A DNA stretch of 63,956 nucleotides, filler included, from Raillietiella orientalis (taxonomy: Eukaryota), in the NCBI GenBank assembly GCA_036172245.1. It is 3 parts of 3 records of this genome, joined end to end, with 100 filler letters (N's around TTAATTAATTAA, not from the genome) between each part and the next. Parts side by side here need not be neighbours in the genome. Positions count along the whole stretch, not along the records: positions 27,858 to 54,998 come from JAYWIR010000213.1; 2 more parts are not named here. One strand, 5' to 3'. The notes beneath the pieces were generated by a model, which worked only from the letters and a program-made list of their open reading frames with translations, was not told where the DNA came from and ran no database searches. This document shows positions 24,701 to 55,098 of this stretch, one piece after another; the stretch's first letter is position 1; every line of letters starts with the position of its first letter. A program made the translations under genes and the position numbers.

Positions 24701-27700
24701 AGTGCCACCCCCCTAATAAAATGAACTCTTCTTAATGATCCTCTGAAACCAGGAAATTGGGAGGCTTTGTGGCTCTCCATGAAGGGAATATACCCTCACT
24801 GCAAATGAAAGGTTCGTGAAGAAGCGCAAAAGTGCAATGGTGAAATCTTCTGATTTCGAGTTGATTACAAAACCTCAATAGTTGCAAATTCTGACCAAAT
24901 AATGAATCAGAGCGAATGAGAAGATTGCCTTTCTAATTCCGACACTGGTTACCATGAAAACAACACAGAATGCAAAGTGCCACGCCCTAATGAAATGTAG
25001 AACTCTTCTTAATGATCCTCTGAAACCAGGAAATTAAGAGGCTTTGCGGCAATCCATGAAGGGAATTTGCCACTCACTGCAAATGAAAGGTTCGTGAAGA
25101 GGCGCAAAAGTGCAATGGTGAAATCTTCTGATTTCGAGTTGATTACAAAACCTCAATAGTTGCAAATTTGGACCAAATAATGAATCAGAGGGAAGGAGAA
25201 GATTGCCATTCTCATTCCGACGCTGGTTACCATGAAAACAACACAGAATGCAAAGTGCCACGCCTCCCTAATGAAATGTCGAACTCTTCTTAATGATCCT
25301 CTGAAACCAGGAAATTAAGAGGCTTTTTGGCTCTCCATGAAGGCAATTTGCCACTCACTGCAAATGGATGGTTCCTGAAGAGGCGCAAAAGTGCAATGGT
25401 GAAATCTTCTGATTTCGAGTTGATTACAAAACCTCAATAGTTGCAAATTCTGACCAAATAATGAATCAGAGCGAATGAGAAGATTGCCTTTCTAATTCCG
25501 ACACTGGTTACCATGAAAACAACACAGAATCCAAAGTGCCACGCCCCCATAATGAAATGTCGAACTGTTCTTAATGATCCTCTGAAACCAGGAAATTGGG
25601 AGGCTTTGCGGATCTCCATGAAGAGTACTTGCCACTCACTGCAAATGGATGGTTCCTGAAGAGGCGCAAAAGTGCAATGGTGAAATCTTCTCATTTCTAG
25701 TTGATTACAAAACCTCAATAGTTGCAAATTTGGACCAAATAATGAATCAGAGCGAAGGAGAAGATTGCCATTCTCATACCGACGCTGGTTACCATGAAAA
25801 CAACACAGAATGCAAAGTGCCACGCCCTAATGAAATGTCGAACTCTTCTTAATGATCCTCTGAAACCAGGAAATTGGGAGGCTTTGCGGCTCTCCATGAA
25901 GGGAGATTGCCACTCACTGCAAATGAAAGGTTCGTGAAGAGGCGCAAAAGTGCAATCGTGAAATCTTCTGATTTCGAGTTGATTACAAAACCTCAATAGT
26001 TGCAAATTCTGACCAAATAATGAATCAGAGCGAATGAGAAGATTGCCTTTCTAATTCCGACACTGGTTACCATGAAAACAACACAGAATGCAAAGTGCCA
26101 CGCCCTAATGAAATGTCGAACTCTTCTTAATGATCCTCTGAAACCAGGAAATTAAGAGGCTTTGCGGCAATCCATGAAGGGAATTTGCCACTCACTGCAA
26201 ATGAAAGGTTCGTGAAGAGGAGGAAAAGTGCAATGGTGAAATCTTCTGATTTCGAGTTGATTACAAAACCACAATAGTTGCAAATTTGGACCACATAATG
26301 AATCAGAGCGAAGGAGAAGATTGCCATTCTCATTCCGACACTGGTTACAGAAAGAACACAGAATCCAAAGTGCCACGCCCCCCTAATGAAATGTCGAACT
26401 CTTCTTAATGATCCTCTGAAACCAGGAAATTGGGAGGCTTTGAGAAAAACACACACAAAAAGTGGATATTGAAGGGAATATGCCACTCACTGCAAATGAA
26501 AGGTTCGTGAAGAAGCGCAAAAGTGCAATGGTGAAATCTTCTGATTTCGAGTTGATTACAAAACCTCAATAGTTGCAAATTCTGACCAAATAATGAATCA
26601 GAGCGAATGAGAAGATTGCCTTTCTAATTCCGACGCTGGTTACCATGAAAACAACACAGAATCCAAAGTGCCACGCCCCCATAATGAAATGTCGAACTGT
26701 TCTTAATGATCCTCTGAAACCAGGAAATTGGGAGGCTTTGCGGATCTCCATGAAGAGTACTTGCCACTCACTGCAAATGAAAGGTTCGTGAAGAGGCGCA
26801 AAAGTGCAATGGTGAAATCTTCTGATTTCGAGTTGATTACAAAACCTCAATAGTTGCAAATTTGGACCAAATAATGAATCAGAGCGAAGGAGAAGATTGC
26901 CATTCTCATTCCGACACTGGTTACCATGAAAAGAACACAGAATGCAAAGTGCCACGCCCCGCTAATGAAATGTCGAACTCTTCTTAATGATCATCTGAAA
27001 CCAGGAAATTGGGAGGCTTTGTGGCTCTTTATGAAGGGAATATGCCACTCACTGCAAATGAAAGGTTCGTGAAGAAGCGCAAAAGTGCAATGGTGAAATC
27101 TTCTGATTTCGAGTTGATTACAAAACCTAAATAGTTGCAAATTCTGACCAAATAATGAATCAGAGCGAATGAGAAGATTGCCATTCTCATACCGACGCTG
27201 GTTACCATGAAAACAACACAGAATCCAAAGTGCCACGCCCCCATAATGAAATGTCGAACTCTTCTTAATGATCATCTGAAACCAGGAAATTGGGAGGCTT
27301 TGTGGCTCTTTATGAAGGGAATATGCCACTCACTGCAAATGAAAGGTTCGTGAAGAAGCGCAAAAGTGCAATGGTGAAATCTTCTCATTTCTAGTTGATT
27401 ACAAAACCTCAATAGTTGCAAATTTGGACCAAATAATGAATCAGAGCGAAGGAGAAGATTGCCATTCTCATACCGACGCTGGTTACCATGAAAACAACAC
27501 AGAATCCAAAGTGCCACGCCCCCATAATGAAATGTCGAGCTGTTCTTAATGATCCTCTGAAACCAGGAAATTAAGAGGCTTTGCGGCAATCCATGAAGGG
27601 AATTTGCCACTCACTGCAAATGGATGGTTCCTGAAGAGGCGCAAAAGTGCAATGGTGAAATCTTCTCATTTCTAGTTGATTACAAAACCTCAATAGTTGC

Positions 27701-27757
27701 AAATTTGGACCAAATAATGAATCAGAGCGAAGGAGAAGATTGCCATTCTCATACCGA
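15760..27757. repeat. Satellite A subfamily A2 (278/281-bp monomers)
   Basis: Diagnostic variants absent upstream: GCCATTCTCA(T/A), a +3 insertion in CCACGCCCCCCTAATG, GCGGCAATCC and GGTTCCTGAAG. There is a local 1121-bp 4-mer period (19704/20825; 20291/21412). Confidence 0.9.
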
Positions 27758-27857
27758 NNNNNNNNNNNNNNNNNNNNNNNNNNNNNNNNNNNNNNNNNNN
27801 NTTAATTAATTAANNNNNNNNNNNNNNNNNNNNNNNNNNNNNNNNNNNNNNNNNNNN
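27758..27857. other. Artificial contig-joining spacer N44-TTAATTAATTAA-N44
   Basis: Exactly 100 bp; the palindromic 12-mer puts stops in all six frames; an identical spacer lies at 54999-55098. Confidence 0.98.
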
Positions 27858-30809: not shown

Positions 30810-30952
30810 GTGCAGAACTTGTGAGAACCCAAGGACTTGATAGTGGGGAAAAAAAAGTGCTAATGGTATGCATGAGATTGTAGTGTGAATGTTTTTATAG
30901 AAAAATTTTAGAAAAATAAATTTACCCCACCCCTCGTGGGACTTGGGGAAAA
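27858..30952 (+). mobile_element. L1/Tx1-like non-LTR retrotransposon, family X copy 1 (cut at contig edge; inserted in ORF1 of Y copy 1)
   Basis: ORF2 remnant and 3' UTR, AATAAA at 30915-30920, terminal hairpin CCCCA...TGGGG then AAAA; the 3' part is collinear with 42832-43930 on the other strand. Confidence 0.9.
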
Positions 30953-32296
30953 CTACTGAGTCGGCGATGGGGCGACTGCATGCAGCGTGCTTTTGCTCGT
31001 CGCGACGCTGCTTTTTACGGCTTTCGTAGCCTTTGTAGAGGGACCTGCGCTGCAGTGGGGCTGTCCGGAACTCGGAAGGGACAACGGAACAGGGCAAGAA
31101 GTCTTCGCACTGTTGCGATCTTCCTGTTTTCCTACCTTTCCCTCCAGGGTGTTACGGAGATTTCCTGGTTCCTGGCTCCGTGGGCAGCGAGGGAGGGCAC
31201 GGCACGCGTCAAACCCTCGCGCTCCTTTTTAATTGGCTTTCCCGCCGTAAATTTTTACTTTTCGGGGCGTTGTGGGCGGGGATGCTTTATTTTCATCCGC
31301 GGATCGCTTGTTGTTTTTTCAGAGTTTTTGCGGACGACGCTTCTTAGTTGTCGCTGCGGCTTTTCGTGCAGTGGTCTCTTGAAACCGACGAATTTCCGCT
31401 GCGGTTCTTTTTCTTGCAAGTACCGGGCACTGTTTGCTTTCGTGCCCGGAATCTTTGCAATAGCGGCATCTTGGAGAGGGACACTCTTTAATTCGGTGCC
31501 CATCCTTGCCGCACTGCTCGCACGCGCGAGTCTGGCCTATGAACCACAGGTGAACGACCGTGCCGTTCAAATGCTGCTGCTTAGGCACAACACGCCTGTT
31601 CGCCACGGTGATCCGCGCGGAGGCTTGTCCAATGTGGACAGAGGGGAAATCCTTCAGAGGATTAGGCCTTCTCCACAAAGCGTGCACGGTGGCGAACTTC
31701 GCCAGCACGCATACGAAATCGCGGTCGGAGATTTCCGGTTCGATGTCGCACAATTGAACGACAAAAGAGTCGTCCATCGCGGTAGGTAGGACTTCCTTGC
31801 CATTGATGGTCAACGGCGCACGGAGAAGGCGCTGCACAAGTGCTGCGTTCTTGCACCGAATCTTCGTATATTCCATCCTGCTAGCAGGCATTATGGAAAG
31901 GAGTTCCTCCTCGCAAACGCCGATCAGGACGAGCTCATCGTTCAGCTCACGACCGATTCTCCCTTTGAGGGGCCCACTGACCTTATAACGGAGTGCAGGC
32001 ATGTATCCTGATGACACATATGCCTGGAACTCCGCATCGCAGAGTCTATGTCTTTGGGATTTAACGGCGGGGTAACTACTCACCGGAGGCGAGGAAACCA
32101 TTACGGAGGATGCGGCCAATTCAAGTGCAGCTGGAGTGCATCCAGTGGCATGCTCCTCCACACTAACCTCTGCACTGGCCATGTTCCACTATGCTACTTG
32201 GCAGATTGCACGGGAACACACAAGTGCAAGCGAAAACGCAGGCACAAAGTTGCCCAATCGTTGGCGCCGATAGACGCGGAAACACGTCTGCACTGC
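30953..32296 (-). mobile_element. Family Y copy 1: 5' end, 5' UTR and 5' part of ORF1 (inserted in the APE of Z1a)
   Basis: Starts GCAGTGCAGACGTGTTTCC, like the 5' end at 41475; collinear with 41475-42831. Confidence 0.85.
31319..32182 (-). pseudogene. ORF1 (gag-like nucleic-acid-binding protein) with two CCHC zinc knuckles; premature stop
   Basis: ATG-initiated 287-aa open frame with CEQCGKDGHRIKEC and CRYCKDSGHESKQC, preceded by an RRM-like region as in Tx1/L1 ORF1s; homology continues past the stop to 30953. Confidence 0.88.
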
Positions 32297-33606
32297 ACGA
32301 GCGTAAGAAATTAAACGGTTCTCCGGAGGGCGGCTATTGTACAGGTGTGGGAGTTCGAAAAGTTGCGGTGTCGCCTGCCTGCTTCGGCCAGCCGTCGAGG
32401 CCGCGGCTCGGGGCGTGCGGTTCGACGATCACGGTCGTGTGGGCCAGCTGACTCTTAGGTGGTCCGACTCGATCGATCTGATCGTCACGAACGTGTACGA
32501 ACAGAGCTGCGCGGACCTGATGACCAAGAGGGCAAGGTAAGAGTTTTTCCTTGCCCTCCGCCGAGACTGGCTGACCAAAGCAGGAGTGTGGAATGCCCAT
32601 CTGGTTGCAGGCGATTTCAACGTTTGCCTGAAACCAGATGCGCAGAATCCCGAGCGTGACCTGGTCAACGAGGTGTGCATGTCGGTGCACACCTGTAATT
32701 TGTTGGCCAGTGCACCGGGGATGGAAGACAGCATTGACCACGTGTTTCTTGACGAGCACCTGTGCCCTCGCGTGGGCAGGCGCGGCAAGTTACCGTGCGA
32801 GCTGTCCGACCATCGCCCGCTAGAACTCGAGATCGATCCGCGCGACAGGAGCCCCCCCTCGTCAGCGTGGCGTCCCCCAGGAAACTGACTGAAGCTCTTG
32901 GACGCGGCGGAACATCTCCGTACGTTCATACGAAGCTTCAGGCTGCGGACACTCCAGGATTGGGACCGCTTCAAGCGGTAGGAAATGGAGTTCTGCAACC
33001 AGTTCCCTCTCCACCGCCTACCTACGGGTTTTAACACCGGGGTCCGTAAAGAACGAGCCTACATACAGGCCCGTCATTACGCCAGAACCCTTGACATCCG
33101 CAGGCTGTCGGAATGCAAAGCGGGAGCAGAGAGGCAAGCCTGGCAGTCCGGATCGGCCAGCTTGCTGGACGATCAGGGCCAGGAGCACTCGGCACCTGCC
33201 CAAATCCGCGGCCTGCTACGGAGTTACTTCTCCTCCCTGTATGCCAGGGCACCTCCGGAAAGGAACGTCTCACGACTCCTGCTTCAGGAAGGCGCTCCAG
33301 CGATCGGATAGGAGGAGAGAAAGATTCTCGATGAGCCTTTCACGATGGACGAGATCCTCTCGGCCATCGGAAAGCTCAAGAGGCGAAAGGCTCCAGGGGA
33401 AGACGGCCTGCCCGCGGGGTTTTACCAAACTTTCGCGGCTGAGCTTACCATCCTGGTACAGCAATTCTCCTTGCTGATACGCGCGACTGGTGACGTTTCC
33501 TCCTCGTTTAGTTCGGCAAAGGTGGGGCTCCTCCCTAAGAGAGATCTGAGAAGCATGAATAACTGGCGTCCCATCACAATAGTGAATGCTGACTCCAAGT
33601 CGCTAG
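32297..33606 (+). mobile_element. Family Z1 copy a, part 1: ORF2 APE, linker and start of RT (disrupted)
   Basis: VTNVY, AGDFN, SIDHVF, LSDHRP, YFSSLYA, KAPGEDG, NWRPITIVNAD; collinear with about 53670-54970 (-). Confidence 0.9.
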
Positions 33607-33956
33607 TTGCCACCCGGTCAAGCCAGGGCGTTTATTTCAAATTCTCTATGATTCGTGGTACGAGGCCCCACTACGGCCTGCTCAGCTGGACCTGCTAGGT
33701 CGCCGGTACATAGACCGGCGCGACTCTCCTCGGCAGCGAAAGGGGATGGGGAAAAAAGAAAAAGAAAAATAAACCATAAAAAACAAAAAGATTTGTTAGG
33801 GTTGGGGAGGGTTTACTGACCACTGGGAAGAGGGTCCGTCCTTTGAAGGTTGCCCTCGAGGTCCGTCCGTATGGTTTCTAGGTGGGGCCATCTGGTCGCA
33901 GTCCGCAGGTAGCGGACTGGCAGTACGACGGCATCCCTGTCGTGGCTCGGTCTTCT
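33607..33956 (-). mobile_element. Family Z2-like short 5'-truncated copy (ORF2 tail and 3' UTR) inserted in Z1a
   Basis: Collinear with 37834-38183; stop at 33813, AATAAA at 33636-33631, conserved terminal hairpin; about 65-70 bp of host missing at the junction. Confidence 0.85.
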
Positions 33957-36218
33957 AACGTTGCTCCTGGGCGAAGCATGGAGGCGAACCTCTTCCACCC
34001 TTCCACGTGGCAAGAGCTCAGACAAGAAAGAAGCTTGCTGCACAGCCGGAATTGCGATGCGTGCGCCGGCAAGGGGTCGGATGGTCGGGTGGGGGAGGGA
34101 GCCCTTGCGGTCGCAATCGACTTGCGGAAACCATTCGATTGCGTCTACCAGAATCTTCATCTGGAGCTTCTGGAACGCTTGGGCTTCCCGGTTTCATTAG
34201 TGGCCTATCTGCGCTCCTGCTGGCGCGACGCGCTTTTCAGCGTTTCTTTCAGCGCCCAGACCGTGCACGGCGTGCCGGTGCGGCGTACGATCCGGCAGGG
34301 AGACAGCCTGAGCCCCTTGCTCTTCAGTAACTACTTTGAATTGGTACTGAGAGAGTACAGGGGAACTCTGGCGCACCTGCCGCACGACTGTGCCGGTACG
34401 CCGGCCGTTTCAGCGTACGCGGACGACCTTCTGCTGCTGCTTCCTATGTCCACCTTGGCCTCGGCGGTCGAGGAGTTCTTCGACCTGCTGCATCGGGGAA
34501 CCGAACTTACGGTGAACGGAGCGAAGTCGTCCGTGATGCCAGTTGGTGCGGCGTGGGCAGGGCAGCAGGACTGGGTCCGTTTGAGAATCCTCACGGTGAG
34601 GTACTTCAAGTACCTTAATGTGCCGTTGGGGGACTACTCACCTGCGGAAGCGTGGTCCTGCTGCCTCCAAAAAGTAGAGACGGCGATCGGTCCGCTCCGA
34701 AGCGGCAGGTTTTTCCTGCCTGAACGGGCCGCTGTTTGGAACACGTTCGCGGCTCCAATCTTTCTCCCCCTGCTATTTGTTTGCCCTTCCACAGAGAGGA
34801 TTAAAATGGGGACAAACGACCTCCTCCGTATCGCTCTTCGGGGCAACGGGAGGGCCCGAGTTCGCTTAAAGGACTTGTGCGCTCCTCGTAGGGATGGTGG
34901 TCTGGGCCTCTCGACGCTGGAGCGGTTGAAGCGTGAGCTCCAGTTCCGAATGTCAGGAATTTTTCCAGAGTTGTTGTGCACCTGTTGGTGCGTCCCTGCA
35001 CGTCTCCTTCTCCAGCAAGCCACCGGCAAGATGGGACTGACGTCGTTTCTTGCACTGCGTCGCCGCGTCAACCGATGCGGGCTTCAGCTACGGAGGGTGG
35101 CTGGCGCTGTACCGGAAAAACCCAGGATTGGTCTCCTGTCGCCCTTTGAACGGTAGTGCCTGGTTACAGGAAACCGTTCGAACGTGGGGACAGTTCGGCA
35201 TGCAACGCTCCTAACAGGAACGAAGGTTCATGTTTGGGGGTTACAGAAGTTGCACGCTCCACGAGATCCTGGAGGATCCAAAGAATAGAGCGTGGGCAGG
35301 AAGAACCCCTCTCGCTGCTGCGCTGCCCTCCCTGATGAAAGGTCTGGAAAGCGATGTTGCGGCGAAGTGGGAGGTTACAGTAAAAATCTCCGGAAAGGAT
35401 AAGAAGATCGGAGAGTGAAAGACGGGCCAGTTAACAGACACTGCGTCCCCGAGTACGCCTCCCAATGGACTTCTGCGCTGGAGCGTGCTGCTCGATGTTC
35501 CTATTGAACATCTGAAGTGGCCCCCTGTGCTCATCAACACTTCCTCCTTCCCCTTGAAATGGCAGTTGTCTGCTCTCCTGTTGCAGCACTTGGGACTCTC
35601 CTGCAACTCCCGCCGACACCACTGGACCTGGGGAGCAGTGGACCCCAATTGCGTCAGGTGTGGGGAACGGGAGTCCCTCCCCCTCCTGCTAGTGGATTGT
35701 GTTGCCCATCTGCCCCTTTGTTTTCGCTTTGCCGCGGCCATCGGAATCCCCTGCGGCACTGAAAGCCCTCTTCGTTGCCGACGCCCTTCGGCCAGCATCC
35801 TCGTTAGCAGCTTTGTGCTGCCTACGCGGGATCGTCACCGCTTGGAGCAAGGCTACGGGAGGACAACGCGACCAGGGTGCCATACAGCCAGCCTCCCAGT
35901 TCCTGAGGAGAGCGTCGTGATGTCCCCACCTGGATCCAAGCATGCAGCAAGAGCTTTGCGGCTTCCTGCAAAGGATGCAACGGCCTTACCAGCTACAGTG
36001 ATCAGTTCCTGTACCCTCCCAGTTTTTTGTTTCGTTTTGGTTTTGTTTTTTGTTTTTCCCCCTCTCCCCTGCTGCCGTGTTGGACCGTGCCGGTCGGCGT
36101 ACTGGTGACCTGGGACGCTCTGTGTTTCTTCGTGCGTGGCTGGAGCAATGGTCCAGCCACCGCACGTCTTTGTAAATGTTTATTTTAGAATAAACTCATC
36201 GGCGAAATCCGGGTGAAA
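33957..36218 (+). mobile_element. Family Z1 copy a, part 2: RT, Zn finger and 3' UTR (3' end inserted in W)
   Basis: DLRKPFD, RQGDSLSP, YADD (34416), GGLGL, CVRCG; stop at about 36001, U-rich UTR, AATAAA at 36189-36194. Confidence 0.92.
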
Positions 36219-36920
36219 ATCGGACACCTTGCGAAGATCGCCCGGGACCTCCAAGGAACCCGGGGCTTCCTCAGGCGGAATGCAGCGACGCAGTTTTTGC
36301 AGCCGCAGATGCGGTTGCTTGGCTGTCGTGCGCCACGCGACGTTGCAGCTCGAGCCACGTGCGCAGGAAGAACAGGTTCGCCTCCATGGACCGCCCGGGA
36401 ACAGCGTAAGACTGCTCCGGACTTACCACGGATCCAGCGATCCTGCGTAGGCACGCTAGGCAGAGCCTGGGGAACAACTTGACGTCCGCATTCACCAAGG
36501 TGATGGGACGCCAGTTGCTTAAATGGCGCATGTCTTCGCCTTTCGGCAAGAGACGCACCCTTGCTGAGCGAAACGAGGCCGGTAGATTGCCCGTCTCTCG
36601 CATCAGCGCAGAAAGCCTCAGCACCAGGGGGATGAGTTTCGCCGCGATGCACAGTAAGAACTCCTCAGGCAGACCATCCTCACCTGGCGCCTTGCGCTTC
36701 TTGAGGCCCGCTATGGCGGAAGACACTTCTTCCGCCGTGATGGCGAGTCAAAAGTGACGCTTTCGTCCTCGTCGACCGCCGGGGAATCCGCCGGCAGGAG
36801 CAGCTCCGAGAGACTGCGTTCCTTCGGCTCCCTAGCATACAACTAGAAATAGTAGCGCTTTAAGAGGCGGCGAACTTCGGCCGCGCCCGAGCACTCCAGG
36901 CCCTGGTCGTCGAGCAGAAT
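36219..36920 (-). mobile_element. Element W: 5'-truncated Y-like ORF2 fragment (linker to RT motif A)
   Basis: LLDDQG, KAPGEDG, NWRPITLVN, ends at DLRKVSD; shares ERSLSELLLP.D.P.VDE with Y (about 45645) rather than with Z1/Z2. Confidence 0.85.
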
Positions 36921-37833
36921 TGGGGGGTCGGCTGTACTGGTAACGCGGCTGCCGCAACTCCTGTGGGGTCGTGTTCCTCGTCAAGTCAGCAATGGACGCT
37001 GCCGTAAAGTGCGTACGCTTTATGACGACGTTCGGGTCGGCCAGGTGATTCTCAGGTGGTTCGACTCGATCGATCTCATTGGCACAAACGTGTATGCTTC
37101 CAGCAGCAGACAGGGCTACAGCGAACGTAACGGGTTGCTGGAAACCCTGATGCGCGATTGGTTGGCGGAAACGAATGTGCGATAGGTTAACCTGATAGCG
37201 AGAGATTTCAATCTTCGCCTGTTAACAGGTGAGCCGGGAACACAATGGGAACTCGATGAACGAGTTGTGCGCCGCCATGCGTGCGCACAACTTGTTCGCA
37301 GATGGAAGGGGAATGGTCCGCAGTATCGATCGCGTCTTCCTCGACGCTGACCTGTGTACGCGTGTCGCCAAACAGGATAAGCTTGCGACGACGCTGTCGG
37401 TCCATTCCCGGTGAACTTTGGGGATGCGTCCGAGCGACAAAGGACCGCCTTCCAGGGTGCGGCATCTGCCGGGAGACTGTACGCGACTCTCAGCTGCGAA
37501 GGAACACCTTCGCGTATTCCTGAGAGACGTTACGCTTCAGAGCTTTAAGGACTGGGACCTCTTTATCGCCTCGTTTCGGGAATTCTGCGAGCAGTTCCCC
37601 CTGGACCGCCTGCCCTTCGGATTTGGCGAGGGCCTTCGCAACCTTCGGCCCTATTTACAGGCTCATCGGTACGAGAGATCCCCTAATGTCCGTCGCCAGG
37701 CCGAGTACTGCGCCAGGGCCGAACGCCAAGCCTGGCAAACCGGGTCGGCCAGCTTACTGGACGACCAGGGACGGGAATTTTCTACCGGCGGCGGTACGCC
37801 ATCTCGTGCGGAATTATTATTCCACCCTTTACG
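36921..37833 (+). mobile_element. Element V part 1 (Z2-like; outermost visible host): APE and linker
   Basis: GGRL, TNVYA, DFN, SIDRVF, WD.F; ends at RNYYSTLY. Confidence 0.85.
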
Positions 37834-40800
37834 TTGCCACTCGGTCACGACGAAGCGTTTATTGTAAACTCTTTTTACAATTTGTGCTACTAGGCCCCAC
37901 TACGGCCAACTCAACAGTACCTGCTGGGTCGCCGGTATGCATACCGGCGCGATTCTCCTCGGCAACGGAAGGGGGTGAGGAAAAACGAAAAGAAAAATGA
38001 AACAGAAAAACAAAAAGAAGTTGAAGGGCGGCGAAGGGATTACGGTCCACTGGGAGGGGTGTCCATCCTTTCTAGGATGCCCTCGAGTTCCGTCCTAATG
38101 ATACCAAGGTGGGGCCATCTAGTTGCAAGCAGCAGGTAGAGGACTGCGAGTTCGACGGCACCCCTCTCGTGGCTCGGTCTTCTGTAATCGCTCCAGCTCA
38201 TCACAATACCTCGGATGCAGCAGAGTGCTGCCAGGGCGGCAGCTGCTCGCAGGGCATCTCGCACGAAAAGAAGCCGAAAAACGTCTCTGGGCTGGCTGCC
38301 CTCCTGCAGCCGTAGGGAGGTGCCAAAAAGCTCCCACAGGGATCGGAGCGCAGCACAATTAACAAGGAGGTGGGCGAGGGTTTCCCGCTCTTCACACCTG
38401 AAGCAGGCGGGATTCACTCGACCCCTAGTCCAGTGGTTGCCGCTTGCGTTGCAGGGTAGACCCCAATGCAACAGCAGAAGTGCCGACTTCTGCCACTTCA
38501 GAGGGAGGTTCGTCGATCCAAAGAAATCCGGGAGCCACATCAGGTCATCCATCGGGATGCCGAGCAGCTCGCGTCTTCTCTTTAGACCACGCAGGAGGAC
38601 ACTTCGGGTAGTGGCATCGGCCAGCTGCGCCGTGGTCCAGCCGCTTAACTTCTTCTCTCTGCCTGCGATTCGGCAGTAGACTTGCCACCTAGGCGTGCGG
38701 CTGCTAAAGAGCGCCCTCCTCAGGAAGGGCATCGCCGTAGCTAGGGGCGTGGTCTCGGCCCACGTGCTCCGGGCAGAACATTGAAAAAAGGTCCGCAGGC
38801 TGCAGCAGGCACGGTTGTAGAATCGCAGGCAGTTGTAGTTTTATTCTCCTTGGGCATTTAACCTCGCCCACGTTCCAACAGATTCCTCCAGCCATGCGCA
38901 GGACTTGGCGGGGCTGCATGCAATCCAGACGTTCTTTTTGACTAATGTTGCCATGCGCCCGAGCAGTGGGCCGCATCTTCTTATCTTCTGGCCTGGGTGC
39001 AGAAGAAAAGACGCGAGTCCATCGCAGCGGGACACACGGCTGGCTAAAAGGCAGGCCGGAATGCACCAAAGGGTGCTGCACATCTTCGCTGCGATGGACA
39101 GGGTACGCCATCGCAGCTGAGACTCCACTCGCTCCAGCGTCAAAAGGCCGAGACCGCCATCCCGACGCGAAGCACACAAGTCCATCAATGGGAGTCGAGG
39201 CCTCCCTGTTCCCCAAAGGGCGATCCTTAGTAGGTCCTTCGTCCGATTCTTCAACTGGGACGGGACGGGGAAACAAAAAGCAGGGGGCGGAGGATGAGAG
39301 CGGCGAACGCATTCCACACCGCGGCCCTTCCCTTTAGGAGAAACCTGTCTTTCAAGAATGGGCCCATCGCCAACTCTACTTTCCGGAGACGACCAGACCA
39401 CATTGCCGAAGGGGAATAGTCGCCCAACGGCACACCAAGGTACTTTAAGCACCTCGCCGAGGGGATCCCCAAACGTATCCAGTCAGGCCGTCCGACATAC
39501 ATCGCAACAAGGGCTAGCACCGAGGACCTCGCCTTATTTACCCGTAGTCCAGTCCCGCGGTTTAGCAGATCGAAAAAATCCTCGACTGCGGCTGCCGGGG
39601 CGGACATGGGCAAAAGGAGCAGAAGTTCATCGGCGTAAGCCGTTAGGGCGGGCGTACCAAGGCACGAGCACGGCAAGGTAGGCAAACTCACCCTGTATGC
39701 TCTCAGCATCAACTCGAAGTAGGAGCTAAAGTGCAGGGGACTCCTGCTGTCGCCCTGCATGATGCTTCGTCGCACCGGCACGCCGTACACGTGTTGACTA
39801 CTTTAAGCGACGTTGATTATAGCATTGCGCCAGCAGGAGCGCAGGTAGGTTAGTAGGGAGGGTGGGAAGCCCATGCGACTCAGGAGCTCAACAAAAGCTC
39901 CTGTTCCACGCAGTCGAACCCTTTATGCAGATAGACCTCGATCTCTAGGGCCCCTTTCTCCACCCCGGGGTCCCTTTCCTGCCCGGCCAGCGCCTTAAAA
40001 GCGGGGTAGCAATTCACACGCTCTAGATCATGTTTACTGCTCTGCCAGCAAAACCATGTGCTCGCGAAGAACACGTTGGCGTCCATACCTCGCCCGCGAA
40101 CAGCGTTAGCCTGTACCGGGCTAATAACGGATTCTACCACCTGTCCTAGACGCGACGCCCACAGTCCGGCGATCAGCTGGGCGTCCGTATTTACAATGGT
40201 GATTGGACGCCAGTTGCTGAGTTCTCTGAGGTCTCCTCCCTTGGAAAGGAGCCTCACTCAGGCTGACCGAAACGAGGCGGGAACATCGCCTTCGTCTCGG
40301 ATAAGCCTTGTCAACTGAAGCACCAGGGGTGCCGACTCTGCCGCGAAGCATAGAAAAAATTCCGCGGGCAGGCCGTCCTCCCCTGGTGCTTTTCGCCTCT
40401 TGAGCCTTTTAATCACGGCGTGAATTTCGACGGTGGTAACAGGCTCCTCGAGGCTTTCCTTCTCCTCCTCCCCTTTTACCGGGGCACCATCCAGAAGCAA
40501 GCGTCAAGTAGCATCTTGTTCCAAAGGCGCCCTGGCGTAGAGGGAGGAATAATAACGCCGCACGAGGTGCCGTATTCTAGCCGGAGCCGAATGCTCCCGG
40601 CCCTGGTCGTCCAGCAAGCTGGCCGACCCCGATTGCCAGGCTTGACGTTCGGCCCGGCTCCGTACTCCGCCAGGCGACGGATGTTAAAAGTCCTTGCGTA
40701 ATGGCGAGCATACAAATACGCTTGTTCGTTACGGACCCCATCCTTAAATCCGGGGGCAGGTGGTGCAAGGGAAACTCCTTGCAGAACCAGCGGACGAAGG

Positions 40801-41474
40801 CCTTAAAAAGGTCCCAGTCACCGAGATTCCGGAGGGTGACGCCTCTCAGGAATTAGCGAAGGTGTTCGTTCGCACCTGAGAGTCGCGTCCATTCCCCAAG
40901 CAGCCGCCACGCCTTGGAAAGGGGTCCCTTGTCGCGCAGGATACCTCGATAATTAGCCGGGAATGGTCCGACAGCGTCGACGCAAGTCTCCCCCGAGTGC
41001 CGAACCCGTGGACACAGGTCAGCATGCAGCAAAAAATGATCGATGCTGATAGCCATTCCCGGGAGCTTCATCAACAAGTTGCGCGTGCGCATGACAGCGC
41101 ACAACTTGTTGGCCGTCCGTTCCTGTGCGTGGGCATCAACTGAGAGCAGGCGCAGTTTCAAATCGCCAGCAATTAGGTGCGTCCTGTGGAAGTTCGCTTC
41201 CAATTGCCAGTCGCGCCTCAGAGTTTCCAGGAACGGCTTTCGTTCCTGGTACCTGAAAGGACCGCTCGCAGCGTACACATTTGTTACGACGAGGTCGATT
41301 GCGTCGTACAATCTGAGAATCAGCTGGCGGACACGACCGGCTTTGTCGAAGCGCACGCCCTTCACGGCTGCGTCGACCGCCGGCTTCACGAAGAACGCGA
41401 CATCACAGGTTTTGCGGGAGCCCTATTGCCACACTAGCCGCCCTCCTGCGATCCTTTCGATCTCCTGCGTTCGC
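37834..41474 (-). mobile_element. Family Z2 full-length copy, 3' part: most of ORF2 and 3' UTR (disrupted; YADD mutated to YADE)
   Basis: TNVYA, AGDL, SIDH, KAPGEDG, NWRPITIVN, QGDSRSP, YADE (about 39630), YLGVPL, CFRCE..H...C; stop at 38040, AATAAA at 37863-37858. Confidence 0.92.
41460..41474. repeat. Target-site duplication of Y copy 2 (partner at 48453-48469)
   Basis: ATCTCCTG--CGTTCGC vs ATCTCCTGGGCGTTCTC; the host APE sequence rejoins across it. Confidence 0.8.
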
Positions 41475-42831
41475 ACAGTGCAGACGTCTTTTCGCGTCTC
41501 TCCGCGTCCTCGATCGAGCATCTTTGTGCTTGCATTTTCGCTCGCACTTGTGCGTTCCTTGGAAGTAAACGACGAAGCGTTTTGCAGCATGGCCCTTCTG
41601 GGAATGGTGTGAAGGAGAAAATCGTTGAATCCAATTCAATAGGAATAAAAGCGCCGCATCCACCGTGACAATTTCCTCGCCTTCGGTGAGGAGCTACACC
41701 GCCGACACCTCCCAGGAAGCAGGACCCTGCGATGCGGAGTTGCAGGCTTATGTGACATCCGGCTACATGTCCGCACTCCGTTATAAGGTCAGTGGGTTCC
41801 TTAACGGGAGGACCGGGCTTGAGCTCAACGACGAGCTCGTCCGGATCGGCGTTCGGGAGGAGGAGCTTCTTGCCATCATGCCTACGGGCAGGATGGAATA
41901 AACCAAGATACGGTTTAAGGACGCGGCACTTGTGCAGCGTCTTTTCCGTACTCCGTTGTCCATCGGTGGCAGGGAAGTCCTGCCTTTCGTGATGGACGAC
42001 TCGTTTGTCGTCCAATTGTGCGACATCGAGCCGGAAATCTCCGACCGCGATGTCGTAAGTGTGCTGGCAGAGTTCGCCACCGTGCACGCTCTGTGGAGGA
42101 GGCCAAATCCTCTGAAGGATTTCCCCTCTGTCCACATTGGACAAGCCTCCGCGCGGATCACCGTCGCGAACAGGCGTGTTGTGCACGAGCAGCTGCAGGT
42201 GAACGCACGGTCGTTCACCTGTGATTTCTAGGACAGACTCGCGCGTGCGAGCAGTGCGGCAAGGAGGGACACCGAATAAAGGAATGTCCCACCCGGAAAT
42301 GCCGCTATTGCAAAGAAACCGGGCACGAAATAAAAAAGTGCCCGGTCCTTGCAAAGAAAAAGGCAGCAGCGGAAGTTCGTCGCGTTCAAGACACGAACCC
42401 ACGAAAGGCCGCTGCCCGCAAGAAAAAGCAGTGTCTGCGGAGTCTCGGCATAAGAGCCAGGCAATACGCGACAATACAAAAGGCGTCCTCACACGCAACG
42501 CCCCAAAAGGGAGAAATCGCGGCGGGGAAGCCAATTAAAAATTGGCGCGAGGGTTCGACGCGTGCCGTGCTTGCCCTCGCTGCCGCACTGGGAAACACCT
42601 CTCCAAGCCAGGAACCGGGAAATATCCGAAGAACCTCGGTAGGAAAGGTAGGTGAGCAAGAAGATCGCCATAAGGCGAAGACTTCCAGCTCCAACCCGCT
42701 ATCCCTGCCCAAACCGGCAAACCCTCAATCCAACGTAGGGATCTCTGCGGCGCCTACGAAACCCGTAGCGAGCCGCGGCGCGCCGCGCAAAAACACGCTG
42801 CACGCAGCCGCCCCTTCACCGATTCTGCAAG
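41475..42831 (+). mobile_element. Family Y copy 2 (full length), 5' part: 5' UTR and ORF1 (disrupted)
   Basis: Starts ACAGTGCAGACGTCTTTTC, ATG at 41589; encodes near-identical peptides to 31319-32182 (MDDSFVVQLCDIEPEISDRD, RRPNPLKDFPSVHIGQASARITV). Confidence 0.9.
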
Positions 42832-43930
42832 TTTCCCGAAGTCCCACAAGGGGTGAAATAAATTTAGTTTTCAAAAATTTTTCTTGAAAAACATTCACAC
42901 TACAGTCTCATTCATACCATTTGAACTGTTTTTATCAATCCGAAGTCCATGGGTTCACAAGTTCCGCACTCATGGTGGGTTTCCTGCTGTTTGGTCCCGA
43001 ACGTCGTCTTCTGCCCTCTTCCGGATGAATCGGTACGTCGAAGCTTAGATTTTCTCACAGTTTCCAGTGCCAATTTTCCTCTTCAGGAGCCCTTGTAGGA
43101 TCTCCATCGGTGGTGCGGCTCTCCTGGCTTTCCTCATTTTCCACCACCGCACAAGTATGGCGGTTATGAAGAGGGCAATGGTCGTCCTCACCATGAGATT
43201 GTAACAGAAAACATTACCATCCCCCTCAAACATCCCCGCGAGGACTTCCATTACGGATCCGTTCGTAAGTCCGATGATCCTTTTCAGGATCAGCCAGTCA
43301 TGCAGCAATGTGGGAAACGTCAAGACGTGGAGTCTCGTGTCGTTGTCTTCACATGCCGTGCAGTCTCAATCTTCCCGTCTTCCGGTATAGTACTGCAATC
43401 GAGACCCACTCAGGATTCCTTCATGATGAAACATCAGGAGATCATCCTGGGTGCCCGGTGGAAGGTCACTTCTCCAGAGCATCGTGCCAATAGCTAGCAA
43501 GTTGATCCAAATACTTCCATAGCGATCGGCGGATTCCTTGAGGGCACTGATGTCACGGTCTTCTTCCCGAACTAATCTTCGGAGGTTTGTTTTGAATACC
43601 CTGGATCACGCGAATTCGTTGTGGTAATGCCACACCTCGCGGGTCATGTGGATAAACCTTGCTAACATCATCTCTATATACCTAAGAATACGAGTGTGAT
43701 GTAGGTACCCTCCTCGTCTCCACTCCTGGATTCGTTGTAGAGTAACACTGGACCGCTGGTGAATCCAGCTTCTCGTGTCCGGCGAGACAGGAAGCATTCA
43801 AGGGATCACCAAGATGGACTTGTCCTGCCAGAGTTCAATACTTCTCTGCACGATCTTGATTCTGTGCTTTCGCACCAGCCGATGCTTTCTGGAACAGCTT
43901 GGGTCGATTTTTATCCATTCGCCTGCTCGG
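42832..43930 (-). mobile_element. Family X copy 2, 5'-truncated (1.1 kb), flanked by a ~20-bp target-site duplication
   Basis: Collinear with about 29849-30952; flanks are CCCTTCACCGATTCTGCAAG (42812-42831) and CCCTTCACCGACTAGGCAAG (43931-43950), 17/20 identical. Confidence 0.92.
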
Positions 43931-46900
43931 CCCTTCACCGACTAGGCAAGAGAGGAGCAATCTCGCGACAGCCAAGAAGGTGACTCCGCTTCCTCCCTTT
44001 AAAGGCGTGGCGAAAGCGACGCCCCTAGCAGCAAAAACTCCGGAAGCTTCCGAGACGAAAGTCGCGAAAGCGTCCAAAAATCGTGACGGAGAATGGAAGG
44101 TTGTGGAGAGGAAAAAAGAAAAATCTCCCAAGAATGCTTCGCAACCTCCATCTGCGAACTCCTTGGAAGCAAAGAACAGCCGCGTGAACAAGAAAACACG
44201 CGCGGAGGGTTCTTCTGCCTAGGAGAAAAAGACAGCGCCGTCAACGCTCGCAAGTCCGCCTCTGTCAACGCCGAGAAGACGATTCCTGTGCGATCGGACG
44301 GATGCAAACGCACGTCGTTTGCGCAAGCATCAGACTCCGTAAAGGAGCCCGATAACGCCCCTCAACGACCAGTTACTCGCGCAGGAGCGAGCGCCCGCAG
44401 GTCTGAACCCTTAGGCGTGACACGCTCGCCGAAGAACGGCGAGTGCTCACCCCGGAACCCACAGCTTCTGCACCTTGGGAGGAGCACTCGATTACGCGCA
44501 GGACGGTGGAGGCCGGTGGCGACCGCGCACTCCAGCCCCTCGTGCTGCTAAAAGCCCGCTCGCCGGATGAGGCGAGCACCACCGCCTCGCTTTCCCAGCC
44601 GTGATGAGGGCAATCGCGTCTACTCGTCGTGTTGTTGTGCCGTGCTGGAACGTCAAAGGTCTCCAACACGACGAGAAGTGGCGATTGTAGCTAACGCTCT
44701 GCGCGCCTTCGACTTTACGCCCCTGCAGGAGATTCACAGCATCTCCGGAGACCAGGCTGCCGAAATCGAACGGCGTGCGGGCGGAATGCTACATTATAGG
44801 TGCGGCGTCGCACTTACGTGTAGCTTCGCTTTCCTCGTACGAGGAACTTTGGCGGGAGCGGTGCGCGGCGTTCGCTTCGACACGGAAGGCCGAGTGGGAC
44901 AGCTTGTACTCAAGTTGTTCGACTCGATCGACCTTGTCGTAACGAACGTGTACGCGCCGAACGGTGCTGGACGAGGGCCGAAAGGATTGAGTTCTTTGGT
45001 ACCGTTCAGAGCCAGTGGCTCACTCGTTCTCACCCTAGTGTGGCGTATGTCATTGCGGGGGACTTTAACGTCCACCTGCTGACCGAGAATAGCGCACACA
45101 AAAGGGAAAAGTTGCTAGTGGAAGAGATGTACGCGTGCGTACACGTGTGTAACTTGTTCGCTAACGACCCTGTTATGGCGACATCACCAGGACATGTATT
45201 ACTTGATGAACACTTGCTCTCTCGAGTGGTTCGGAGAGGTCCCATTCCGTCCGTGCTTTCAGACCACAACAGGCTCGAGTTCGAGTTGCTCCCGCCAGGC
45301 AAGGGGCCTCCAAACTACGTTTGGAGGATACCGGCAGACTGACTAGGGCACCCGGAGGCGGGGTAGCATCTTCTCCAGTACCTTCGCGGCTTCGCCATAA
45401 GTGAGCTCGCTGACTGGGACGATCTGAAAAGATGTGTCCGCGAGTTTTGCTGCCAATTTTCCTTGCACCAGCTTCCGCGCGTCTTTGGAGAGGGTGTAGC
45501 CAACAGAAGAGCTTTTCTGCAGGCCCGCTTCTACTCCAGGCGCGCAAACGTTGGTCGATTATCCAAATACAAGGCCAAGGCTGAGTGCCAGGTCTGGCAG
45601 TCTGGAGCGACAGTTCTGCTCGACGACCAGGACCGAGATCAACGGAACGCAGTCTCTCCGAGCTGCTTCTGCCGATTGATGCACCTTTTGTAGACGAAAA
45701 GAAACGCGCGCGTTTCAATGAGCCCTTCACGGCAGAAGAAATTTCTTCGGCCATCTCGCGGCTCAAGAGACGAAAAGCGCCAGGCGAGGATGGTCTCCCC
45801 GCAGAATTATTGCAGTGCTTTGCGGCGGAGCTCATCCCCCTGGTTCTTCAACTCTCGTCGCTGATGCGAGACGCGGGCGATGTCCCCGCCTTGTTTCGCT
45901 AGGCGAAGGTGCGTCTCCTGCCGAAAGGCGGAGATTTGCGCCAACTGAACAATTGGCGTCCGATCACCTTAGTGAATTCGGACGTCGTGTTGTTCTCGAA
46001 ACTTTGGGTGGCGCGGATGGGGAGTATCGCGGAGTCTTTGGTAAGTCCGGAGCAGACCTACGCTGTTCCTGGGTGGTACATGGACTCGAACCGCTTATTC
46101 ATCCGCACATGGCTGCAATTGCAGCATCGCATAGCGATGGATCGTCGTGCGGAAGCGACGCCTTCGATCTCTCACCCACTGAGGCGCGGGTCGCAAAGGG
46201 AAACCTCGGAAGCCTTGGCGGTTGCAATAGATTTGCACGAAACTTTCGATTGCGTGAACCAAAAGCTTCTTCTTGAGCTCTTGTAACGTCTGGGCCTCTC
46301 GGCATCCCTGTTGGCTTACTTGCGCACCTGCTGGCGACACGCGATTACATCCATTGTTTTCAGTGGCTGTCACGTGTACGGCGTGCCGGTTAGGCGAGGA
46401 ATTAGGCAGGGCGATAGCTTAAGCCCGCTGCTCTTTAGCATCTATTTTGAAATGATGCTGGAGGCTTACAGGGTGACGCTAGCCAACCTGCCGAGCTCCT
46501 GTCCAGGTACGCCGGCCGTGGCAGCCTATGCCGGTGACCTGCTTCTCCTGTTGCCCGTGTCCACCAAGGCGGCGTTGCTTGAAGATTTCTTGAAGTTGAT
46601 CCGTCGAGTTGCGGGCGTGAGCGTCAACAGGAGGGAGAGCATGGTTGTTTCGGTTGGAGCGACGTGGGAGGGACAGTCCGACTGGATGCGCCAGGAGATC
46701 CCAACGGACAGGTACCTAAGGTACCTTGGCGTGCCGTTGGGCGATTTCTGCATCTCAGAAGCGTATTCGGACTGCCTTCGGAAGGCAGAGCATGCACTTG
46801 GCTTGTTCAGAGGAGGCGAGTTCGTCTTGGCGGAACGGGCCAGCATCTGGAACACCTTCGTTGCCCCCCTCCTCCGCTCCCTGTGTTTTGTTTGTCCACA

Positions 46901-48452
46901 CCCCCCAGGAAGTCTAAGTCTTGGCGCAGAGCCTTCTACGCAAAACGTTGTGGGGCGCTGCAAGGTCCCGCGTAACACTTAAAGACTTGGTGGCTCCACG
47001 TCAGGATGTAGGCTTGGGCATCCTAGAATTAAAAATCATCGAGCTGCAAGTGCAGTTTAGAATGCTGCTGCTTTCTGCCAAGCTGTGATGTACGCCGTGG
47101 TGCTTACCCGCACGACTTATACTAAGGAGCTGCACGGGAAGCGAGGGACTGCTATCGTTGCTGTCGCACTTTCGGCACACCAGAATAGGTTTGTCTTCCC
47201 GCTGAGGCAGCTGTCCTCATTGCTGGAAGCCCAATGTTGATCTCCTGCCTCCCCATGAACATTAATTCATGACGGCAGGAATCTTTTTCCATCGTGGGCA
47301 GCTTCCGAAGGAACGTGCCCGGAAGGTCTTCGGCGCATGCGACTTCTCCTTAGTCATCCAATGGACGAAGTCATGCAGGACAAGAAGATGTCGGATCGTC
47401 TGGCCGCCACACCGCTCGCCGCAGCGCTGTCTGCCCTAAGGGCAATCAACGACAGTTGCCTGTTGGCGAAATGGGAGTTATCCAGCACAATAGCGGGAGT
47501 CTGTAAGCTCCTCGGCTGCTAGACGACAAAGTAGCTGGTGGAAACTGCCACTCCTCGTAATCGAGAGAAGGGCTTGCTTCGGTGGAGTGAACATTTAAGT
47601 GTACCCCCCGAAGAGATAGTTGTCCCCCCGTTTGTTTGCACAGCTCCGTGTTCCCCTTAAAGTGGAAACAAGATGTGCTGCTCTTTTTACACTGGGGCTC
47701 TCACTGTAATCGGCAGCGAAGCATCGTTTCCGGGGGAGCTGCTTTGCCAAACTGTTTAAGGTGCGGTGATATCGAGTCTTTTTCGCACCTCTTGATGGAC
47801 TGCGGTGACCTCCGTGAACTGTGGCGAAGGCTAATTTCAGCCATTCTGCCGCAGGGAGGCACTGCCATTGATGTGCTGCGGCGCTTCTTCAGGAGGAATG
47901 GATTTTCGGTAGGCGCGATTGTCGCAACCATGTGTTGCATTCGCGGACTCGTGAAGGCTCGCTACGCCCTGGAGTTGTCAGCGCAGCGAAGGAAGGCTCA
48001 CCGGTTTGCAGCAGAATCCATGAAAAACGCTGCTAGGTGGTCTCATCTTCGTGACGAGGTCAAAAAGACATCGCGGGCATCCACCACCGGTTTACAGGCT
48101 TTTAGGAACTGCTAAATCCCGTTACCACTTCGTCCTGAAGCCCACATATACCCCTTCCCTGCTCGCTTTGCTAAAATACCGGTGCCATTACTATTATAAC
48201 GGTGAGAACCAGAGCGATCCCAAAGACTTTTGTCTCCGCGTCCCCCATTGATTTCATTTTATTTTGTTTTTGTTTGTTTGTTTTCCCAGTTCCCACAAAC
48301 TGATCTGTGTAATTCTGGCCTGCTTGCCAGCAATATTCTTTTAATAGTTGTGCCGTTGTCGGTTGGGGGCATGGTCCCCAACTGGTTTATTTCATATATT
48401 TATTTCTATTGTATTTGTATGAAATAAACGCCCCGGCGTGACCGGGTGAGAA
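43931..48452 (+). mobile_element. Family Y copy 2, 3' part: ORF1 C-terminus, complete but disrupted ORF2, 3' UTR
   Basis: CWNVKGL (about 44644), LQEIH, TNVYAP, AGDFN, SDHN, KAPGEDG, DLHETFD, RQGDSLSP, YAGD (46527), YLGVPL, CLRCG..H...C; stop at 48115, AATAAA at 48423-48428. Confidence 0.92.
48423..48452 (+). terminator. 3'-terminal signal: AATAAA followed by 24 nt containing a CCCGG-loop-CCGGG hairpin (also at 36189-36218 +, 33607-33636 -, 37834-37863 -, 51320-51349 -)
   Basis: Five copies from three families share the motif and spacing; none is followed by a poly(A) tail. Confidence 0.8.
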
Positions 48453-50684: not shown

Positions 50685-51319
50685 GCTCCCTTTATGCCAG
50701 GGCGCTCCCAGACCACGGTGCCTCTTGGCGCTTGCTTCCGGACGGTGCCCCGGCAATAGGGGAAAAGGAGTCGTTAAGCCTTGACGAGCCTTTTACCACC
50801 CGCGAAATTCTCGCCGCTATCAAAAGGCTCAAAAAACGTAAAGATCCAGGGGAGGACGGCTTGCCCGCGAAGTTCTTTCAGAGCTTCGCGAAAGAGCTGG
50901 CACTCCTGCTGCTTCAGTTGACAAGGTTGAGCCGTGACGAAGGCGATGTTCCCGAGTCGTTTCGGTCAGCCAGAGTGAGAATCCTTCCGAAACGAGGAGG
51001 CATCAGAGACTTCAAGAACAATCGTCCGATCACGATTGTGAACACGGACGCCAAGTTGGTTCCCGGGCTGTGGGCTTCGTGTCTGGGGCAGGTGGCAGAA
51101 TGCATAATTAGCCCGGAGCAGACTTATGCTGTTCCCGGACAAAGCATGGATGCCATCCTCTTCTTTGCAAGCACATGGCTTCACACGCGGAGGAGGTAGA
51201 AAGTAAGGAACGGTGATATTTGCAAAATAACTTAAAGGCGGTCTGTAAGACAGGAAAAGCAATCTAAGGGTTAAAATGGGGCCCTGGCGCTCGCAAACGA
51301 TCTACATAAGGCGTTCGAT
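50685..51319 (+). mobile_element. Element V part 2: linker to RT motif A
   Basis: Resumes at SLYARAL where part 1 stopped (STLY); KDPGEDG, RPITIVNTD; ends at DLHKAFD. The putative TSD is weak (9/12 match). Confidence 0.82.
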
Positions 51320-54300: not shown

Positions 54301-54998
54301 GTCCCAATCCTGGAGTGTCCGCAGCCTGAAGCTCCGTATTAACGTGCGGAGATGTTCCGCCGCGTCCGGCAGCTTCAGCCAGTCCCCTGGGAGACGCCAC
54401 GCTGACAAGGGTATGCCCCTGTCGAGCGGATAGATCTCGAGGACTATCGGGCGTTGTTCGGATAGCTCGCAAGGTAACTTGCCACGCCTGCCCACGCAAG
54501 GGCACAGGTGCTCGTCAAGAAACACGTGGTCAATGCTGTCTTTCATCCCCGGTGCACTGGCCAACAAATTACAGGTGTGCACCGCCATGCGCACCTCGTT
54601 GACCAGGTCACGCTCGCGATTCTGCCCATCTGGTTTCAGGCTAACGTTGAAATCGCCTGCAAGCAGATGCGCATTCCGCACGCCTGCTTCGGTCAGCCAG
54701 TCTCGCCGGAGGGCAAGGAAAAACTCTTTCCTCGCCCTTCTGTTCATCAGGTCCGCGCCGCTCGGTGCGTACACGTTCGTGACGATCAGATCGATCGAGT
54801 CGGTCCACCTGAGAGTCAGCTGGACGACACGACCGTGATCGTCGAACCGCACGCCCTGAGCCGCGGCCTCGACGTCTTGCCGAAGCAGGTAGGCGTCACC
54901 GCAACTTTTCACTCTCCCACACCTGTACCATAGCCGCCCTACGGAGATCCGTTCGAACTCATGCGCTTGTTCTGCAGAGATTACGTGGATCTCCTGTA
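51320..54998 (-). mobile_element. Family Z1 copy b: nearly complete disrupted ORF2 and 3' UTR (cut at contig edge; inserted in V)
   Basis: QEIH, TNVYAP, AGDFN, SIDHVF, DLRKAFD, RQGYSLS, YADD (53136-53125), CVRC; stop at 51540, AATAAA at 51349-51344. Confidence 0.93.
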
Positions 54999-55098
54999 NN
55001 NNNNNNNNNNNNNNNNNNNNNNNNNNNNNNNNNNNNNNNNNNTTAATTAATTAANNNNNNNNNNNNNNNNNNNNNNNNNNNNNNNNNNNNNNNNNNNN
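54999..55098. other. Artificial contig-joining spacer N44-TTAATTAATTAA-N44
   Basis: Identical to the spacer at 27758-27857. Confidence 0.98.

Follow-up and report, generated by a model that had tools for sequence, protein, structure and literature searches.

INTRODUCTION

Known target-specific long interspersed nuclear elements (LINEs) insert into rDNA, telomeres, small RNA genes, microsatellites and one DNA transposon. Here we describe a LINE family, named Z1, which probably inserts site-specifically into the reverse transcriptase (RT) gene of other LINEs. Two copies of Z1 were found in a 63,956 bp stretch from the genome of Raillietiella orientalis (assembly GCA_036172245.1), which we call the window. 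A precedent is Tx1L of Xenopus laevis, a LINE with an apurinic/apyrimidinic endonuclease-type (APE-type) endonuclease, which uses a precise site inside another transposon, and whose endonuclease is sequence specific in vitro (PMC1950540). Transposons are also listed among the targets of site-specific elements of the class without long terminal repeats (non-LTR) (PMC4640811). Z1 resembles Tx1L in being a LINE, putatively of the APE type, found at one precise site in another transposable element, and its relatives carry the APE, RVT_1 and zf-RVT domains. The target of Tx1L is the DNA transposon Tx1D, whereas that of Z1 appears to be a catalytic RT codon of LINEs, entered in antisense orientation in at least two host families.

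Zepp and ZeppL of green algae are L1-type LINEs, which form GC-rich clusters made up of LINEs only by insertion into existing copies (PMC8226300, PMC3446292); such nested clusters are also described in bioRxiv 10.1101/2025.03.28.645958. The middle contig of the window (57% GC) is likewise a LINE-only nest assembled beside satellite contigs, a likeness in nesting. Zepp arrays consist mostly of 3′ ends derived from self-insertion, and the parts of these descriptions drawn on here mention no fixed codon or antisense rule, whereas in our contig members of several families have entered one another at fixed sites. The R1 and R2 elements of 28S rDNA share with Z1 the site-specific insertion into a conserved multicopy sequence, the precise 3′ junction and the lack of a long poly(A) tail. 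The endonuclease of R1 is of the APE type (PMC1919474). R1 and R2 differ from Z1 in that their target is a host rRNA gene and not a mobile element, and the endonuclease of R2 is restriction-like. A search of full texts, from which the original Zepp papers, Repbase reports and most subscription journals were absent, returned no LINE with an RT motif of other LINEs as its fixed target.

RESULTS

Two Z1 copies end at the same nucleotide of RT motif A

The window is composed of three contigs joined by N44-TTAATTAATTAA-N44 linkers (27758-27857 and 54999-55098), so neighbourhood across the linker points is not real. Both Z1 copies lie in the middle contig (27858-54998, 27.1 kb, GC about 53-59%): Z1a at 32299-36218 on the + strand and Z1b at 51320-54998 on the - strand. 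The two copies terminate in the same sequence, ...CCGGGTGAAA (the terminus is also written ...GGGTGAAA and ...GGCGAAATCCGGGTGAAA). The 3′-terminal motif (AATAAAC...CCGGGTGAAA), which marks the end of the insert, occupies 36189-36218 (+) in Z1a and 51320-51349 (-) in Z1b. Read on the + strand, the Z1a junction is ...AATCCGGGTGAAA up to 36218, followed by ATCGGACACCTTGCGAAGATC. At the Z1b junction, GATCTACATAAGGCGTTCGAT up to 51319 precedes TTTCACCCGGATT..., in which the same Z1 end is read as its reverse complement. One base at the joint is ambiguous: position 36219 (A) or 51319 (T) can be assigned to either partner.

In both cases the adjoining sequence is a remnant of RT motif A with the GAT codon at the junction: codons DLRKVSD in host W (36219-36239, -) and DLHKAFD in host V (51299-51319, +). 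Both hosts are cut right after the GAT (Asp) codon, and Z1 is antisense to each of them. The placement of the two ends (36218 and 51320) directly behind this codon, first proposed in a first-pass annotation of the window, agrees with both junction sequences. The position of the Z1 end is also fixed independently of the hosts, because its terminal motif is common to three other LINE 3′ ends in the contig: the pattern AATAAAC-N12/13-CCGRGTG-RNAA has five matches in the window, at five LINE 3′ ends, and none in 100 shuffles.

Host W (36219-36946, -; upstream limit approximate) is the N-terminal RT half of a LINE related to Y, a full-length element of the same contig (see below), as judged by an RVT_1 profile match (positions 5-55), tblastn, translation and a tree. 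Host V (50673-51319, +; start approximate) is the N-terminal RT half of a LINE related to the Z2 family, judged by tblastn, translation and the tree. The translation of W reads ...NWRPITLVNAD...AVPGRSMEANLFF...GSLEVPGDLRKVSD with one frameshift, that of V ...NNRPITIVNTD...AVPGQSMDAILFF...GALALANDLHKAFD in a single frame. In tblastn W corresponds to residues 1-199 of P0004, a metagenome protein, and then continues to motif A, and V corresponds to residues 25-234 of the same protein. DLRKVSD and DLHKAFD are no stray look-alikes, because each ends an RT N-terminal half that can be traced about 210-230 residues upstream, in register with the intact RTs of the contig.

Hosts and inserts have separate histories

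Z1a and Z1b are 87.0% identical (1960/2254), and 88.1% identical in the upstream part (1154/1310). Hosts W and V are 59.1% identical (363/614). A maximum-likelihood tree of the RT N-terminal region with seven rows joined W to Y with support of 100/100 and V to Z2 with support of 97/99, and placed Z1a and Z1b (85% identical) as neighbours on short branches. W is 68% identical to Y and 58% identical to Z1.

The two copies have also decayed separately. Z1a contains two in-frame stop codons and Z1b five, and none of the seven is common to both copies. The changes of frame differ in place, being near residue 557 of P0004 in Z1a and near residues 444-473 in Z1b, and no frameshift is common. Without any common stop or frameshift, neither copy of Z1 was made at the DNA level from an element that was dead before. 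The first-pass annotation had described the inserts as close relatives, W as Y-like and V as Z2-like, and had favoured independent targeting over duplication; identities, tree and stop codons speak for it on each point, and on these sequence comparisons the two events look independent.

Z1 encodes an RT and an endonuclease-like domain

Z1a extends from about residue 55 of the endonuclease through the RT to the 3′ end (RVT_1, tblastn to P0001 and P0004, identity to Z1b); its 5′ part is severed by the 5′ end of the antisense Y-like element X1. Z1b extends from the N-terminal region of the endonuclease (QEIHVISAEQ...) to the 3′ end (tblastn, alignment, RVT_1), and its upstream limit is the end of the contig at 54998. 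The 5′ limits given in the earlier annotation (33957-36218 and 51320-53590) had to be corrected. The break in Z1a proved to be Z2x, a 5′-truncated Z2-like 3′ fragment of 350 bp (33607-33956, -), which lies antisense in Z1a at RT motif 2, directly after NADSKSL. Z2x was recognized as foreign by its 79% identity to 37833-38183, by its own terminal motif and by alignment with Z1b, which is uninterrupted here; its insertion went along with the loss of about 65 nt of Z1 sequence.

Upstream of the earlier 5′ limits both Z1 copies encode RT motifs 1-2 and an endonuclease-like domain. RVT_1 matched Z1a with E 5.7e-12 and Z1b with E 8.6e-9, and the motif A of Z1 itself reads DLRKPFD in Z1a and DLRKAFD in Z1b. 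In tblastn the endonuclease region of Z1b matches P0001 (residues 62-155) weakly, with E 0.2. NVYAP and GDFN-like strings, which we take to be characteristic of such a domain, are visible in the Z1 endonuclease region.

In a search of 1.8 billion representative proteins the sole close relative of Z1 was P0004 (64% identity), accompanied by a fragment, P0005, also from a metagenome; a search with the Z1a open reading frame (ORF) at longer lengths returned only two weak matches. By tblastn P0004 is 63-68% identical to Z1a and 67% identical to Z1b. Closeness of the Z1 RT to L1 was judged on P0004 as a stand-in, which matched human L1 ORF2p with E 7e-40 to 5e-39 and R2 proteins with E 7e-17 to 1.5e-11. 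The full-length relatives (at most 30% identity) have the architecture PF03372 + PF00078 + PF13966, that is, APE + RVT_1 + zf-RVT. On account of its RT, its weak endonuclease domain, the match between P0004 and L1 and the architecture of the relatives, Z1 was provisionally filed as an L1-group LINE of the APE type.

One atlas cluster carries the automatic name 'Transposon TX1' (rank 22, score 0.88), and one of the full-length relatives has a similar automatic name; we treat these names as hints only. The atlas neighbours of Z1 point to stramenopile or animal LINEs, and serve as leads only. In the terminal regions of the five LINE 3′ ends that have the common motif (36160-36218, 51320-51378, 48394-48452, 37834-37892 and 33607-33665), AATAAA-containing hairpins and CCCGG/CCGGG hairpins are predicted before the terminus. 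When the RNA folds were compared with those of shuffled sequences, only the Z1b end stood out (z -2.9); the z values of the others were between -0.14 and -1.5.

Two further LINE families show paired insertions at the same sites

The middle contig is a pure nest of L1-group LINEs, which can largely be taken apart. It contains solely non-LTR retrotransposon fragments, with RVT_1, Exo_endo_phos_2 and zf-RVT domains and three ORF1-like frames. These frames (31322-32188, -; 42225-42884, +; 49228-49887, -) have two CX2CX4HX4C (CCHC) knuckles each, and match zf-CCHC with E 1.5e-5, 8.5e-7 and 1.4e-5, respectively. An intrinsic antisense ORF1 lying head-to-head with ORF2 in the Z elements was considered and rejected, as the arrangement is explained by Y-like elements nested at the endonuclease site.

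Y is a full-length LINE (41473-48452, +), in which an ORF1 with two CCHC knuckles is followed by an ORF2 of APE-RT-zf type. It lies antisense in a Z2-family element at the endonuclease codons, directly after ...AQEI, and is flanked by target-site duplications (41460-41472 and 48453-48467; 13/15 nt). The host pieces on the two sides (37834-41472 and 48453 to about 50672, both -) form one continuous ORF across the insert: one piece ends in ...DVITAENAQEI, the other starts with ERIAGGR.... The target-site duplication puts the Y end at the nucleotide equivalent to the Z1 end, ...GGGTGAGAA followed by ATCTCC. A second Y-like element, X1 (30961-32298, -), adjoins Z1a at the same endonuclease codons as those used by Y in the Z2-family element. 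The junction regions of these two Y-like insertions are 41460-41488, 48423-48467 and 32290-32311.

A third family, E, is represented by E2, a 5′-truncated LINE (42823-43930, -), which is placed antisense in Y and flanked on both sides by an exact 11-bp target-site duplication (42812-42822 and 43931-43941), and by E1 (to 30960, +), placed antisense in X1 at the same site (30950-30972). This site is downstream of the CCHC knuckles of the Y-like elements, in the tail of ORF1. The 5′ truncations differ, E1 being much longer at its 5′ side than E2. Pairs of insertions at the same site were thus found in three families (Z1, Y-like and E), with two insertions each, and site-specific LINE-into-LINE insertion is a general habit in this contig. 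Pairwise identities are graded: 86.4% for the E pair (957/1107), 77.8% for the Y-like pair (1039/1335), and 63.3% and 59.9% for Z1a and Z2. The gradation indicates successive insertions, and excludes block duplication. All inserts are antisense to the ORF of the host LINE, at 7/7 visible 3′ junctions and in 9/9 insert-host pairs; with random orientation such a pattern has a probability of about 0.002, if the pairs are independent.

Z2-like 3′ ends (...CCGRGTGGCAAC) were located at 33607, in RT motif 2 of Z1a, and at 37834, directly after YYSTLY of fragment F (36958-37833). Judging from the sequence, F and V may well be two halves of one Z2-like element, which would have been split by the nest made up of Z2, Y and E2; a putative target-site duplication for this split matches at only 9/13 positions.

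The outer contigs are satellite arrays with a GC content of 40-45%. The array of contig 1 (1-27757) has a period of 278 bp, 99.8 copies and 92% matches, that of contig 3 (55099-63956) a period of 277 bp and 32 copies. The end of the first array and the start of the second (27501-27757 and 55137-55943) are 75-78% identical. An Rfam search of the whole window at the gathering threshold gave no match, and hence neither a group II intron nor any other known RNA lies at the junctions.

DISCUSSION

Probable site-specific insertion of Z1 at motif A

We think it likely that Z1 is an L1-group non-LTR family with an APE-type endonuclease and an RT, which is site-specific for the RT gene of other LINEs. 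This conclusion is based on junctions at the same nucleotide in hosts of two families, on a defined Z1 terminus and on the independent decay of the two copies. It is also based on two neighbouring LINE families that behave alike and have target-site duplications, on the coding capacity of Z1 for an RT and an endonuclease-like domain, and on the precedent of Tx1L, whose sequence-specific endonuclease targets another transposon.

The simplest account of the junctions is target-primed reverse transcription after a sequence-specific GAT^ nick by the Z1 endonuclease. The endonuclease would nick the targeted LINE in its sense strand, immediately 3′ of the motif-A GAT (...AAG GCN TTC GAT^). The freed 3′-OH would prime reverse transcription at the 3′ end of the Z1 RNA (...CCGGGUGAAA), and the cDNA would start at ...GGGUGAAA. 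The new copy of Z1 would thus be antisense to the host, and the host RT would be split at its catalytic motif. The strand joined to the Z1 cDNA is the host sense strand, which ends in ...TTCGAT-3′. An AATAAA hexamer is found 22-23 nt upstream of the Z1 end, and the terminal A's of Z1 may be the stub of a poly(A) tail. We infer that the endonuclease, and not RNA-DNA pairing, would select the site, and likewise which strand would be nicked first and that most genomic Z1 copies would be found at the motif-A site. The position of the Y junction, which is given by its target-site duplication, is likewise behind GAT (...CAGGAGAT^); Z1 and Y may therefore have a local nick preference in common.

The same junctions could have arisen in other ways. 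The site may have been picked by nucleic-acid pairing and not by sequence recognition of the endonuclease: the LINE RNA, or a read-through 3′ tail acquired from a previous motif-A site, would pair with the antisense strand of a resident LINE DNA, and the displaced sense strand would be nicked and serve as primer, giving the same antisense outcome at conserved codons by another mechanism. The antisense orientation at all seven 3′ junctions and in all nine insert-host pairs would be expected from such pairing, as would the location of the sites where the coding sequence is conserved (motif A, RT motif 2 and the N-terminal region of the endonuclease); in addition, the flanks of Z1 and Y both start with ATC, a possible microhomology. 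However, in three families two events agree to the nucleotide, which is a better fit to a nuclease that reads sequence. The last 30 nt of Z1, inspected by eye, have no evident complementarity to motif A, and the E target lies in the poorly conserved ORF1 tail, where the Y-like hosts are 60-72% identical per 100-nt block. We regard pairing as an unlikely cause. Somewhat less likely still is coincidence within a loose preference, by which Z1 would favour LINE-rich heterochromatin and the antisense strand, and would have hit the same codon twice by chance. There are only two Z1 junctions, and in the Z2-like family, whose 3′ end is of the same kind, the two insertions went to separate sites. That a second hit falls on the identical nucleotide would nevertheless have a probability of about 1e-4, by our own rough estimate with an element length of about 6-7 kb and either of two orientations. 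Allowing for all pairs of about nine junctions, we estimate it to be still well under 0.05, and two further families in the contig repeat the same-site pattern.

Very improbable is one ancestral insertion followed by duplication or rearrangement at the DNA level, be it an inverted segmental duplication, gene conversion or a twin-priming/inversion artefact. The Z1 copies are mutually inverted in one contig, and the blastn match between them (33965-36240 and 53587-51298) extends 22 nt beyond the Z1 end, both of which could point to such an origin. The overlap is the conserved motif A itself (17/22 identical), however, and V retains the His codon of motif A that is also present in Z2 and Y. A composite segmental duplication would leave insert and flank equally diverged, and was rejected on the difference between 87.0% and 59.1% identity; the hosts come from different families, and the copies have no stop or frameshift in common. 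The twin-priming inversions of L1 also place sense and antisense LINE segments side by side, but here the antisense segment W belongs to another family, and Z1 retains an RT N-terminal region and a motif A of its own, which also excludes an inversion within one element. The geometry is wrong as well: in twin priming the 3′ end faces the flank and not the inverted part.

Several observations weigh against the site specificity of Z1 proposed above. The sample is small, with two Z1 junctions in one contig of repeat-rich unplaced sequence. Neither a 5′ junction nor a target-site duplication of Z1 is visible, as Z1b runs beyond the end of the contig and X1 interrupts Z1a. The contig also lacks the downstream half of both hosts, so Z1 offers no clean host-insert-host picture. 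Five of the seven motif-A sites in the contig are unoccupied, among them the two of Z1 itself, both of which have the same ...TTCGAT/TGCGTC (the slash marks the site); with this sequence self-targeting would be expected of Z1. The idea that such a conserved target is hard for a host to escape, put forward in the first-pass annotation, is in view of these empty sites best treated as speculation. The Exo_endo_phos match of Z1b (54301-54996, -; E 8.7e-4) scores 19.5 bits, below the curated Pfam cutoff of 24.5, and a sequence search of the PDB with the Z1b endonuclease region gave no match. The 3′-end pattern was found at six loci in a metagenome scan, none of which (0/6) encoded an RT by tblastn with P0004 and P0001, and which are therefore chance matches; in viral contigs the pattern had no match, and no further Z1 copy came to light. 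Finally, a sister family whose 3′ end is of the same type, the Z2-like one, has its two insertions at separate sites. The Z2-like family is thus not strictly site-specific, and strict specificity is no property of the whole group.

Possible implications for LINE competition

A wider and more tentative reading, to which we give slightly less than even chances, is that the L1-group LINE families of the contig form a guild, whose members parasitise each other through insertions that are directed by the endonuclease, always antisense and at fixed codons. Z1 would be directed to motif A of Y-like and Z2-like elements, the Y-like elements to ...AQEI of Z1 and Z2, and E to the ORF1 tail of Y-like elements. 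If such a guild exists, each family would gain a safe haven from the reciprocal 'LINE-kills-LINE' targeting, and its rivals would be disabled. The targeting would also be sufficient to build LINE-only islands beside satellite arrays, a possible route to transposon-based centromeres.

If the specificity of Z1 holds genome-wide, the small set of sequence-specific APE-type endonucleases available for studying, and possibly redirecting, targeted retrotransposition would grow by several new members, given the three target sites found in a single contig. The specificity would also explain the growth of LINE-only nests beside satellites, and would mean that competition between retrotransposon families has been acted out at the level of DNA.

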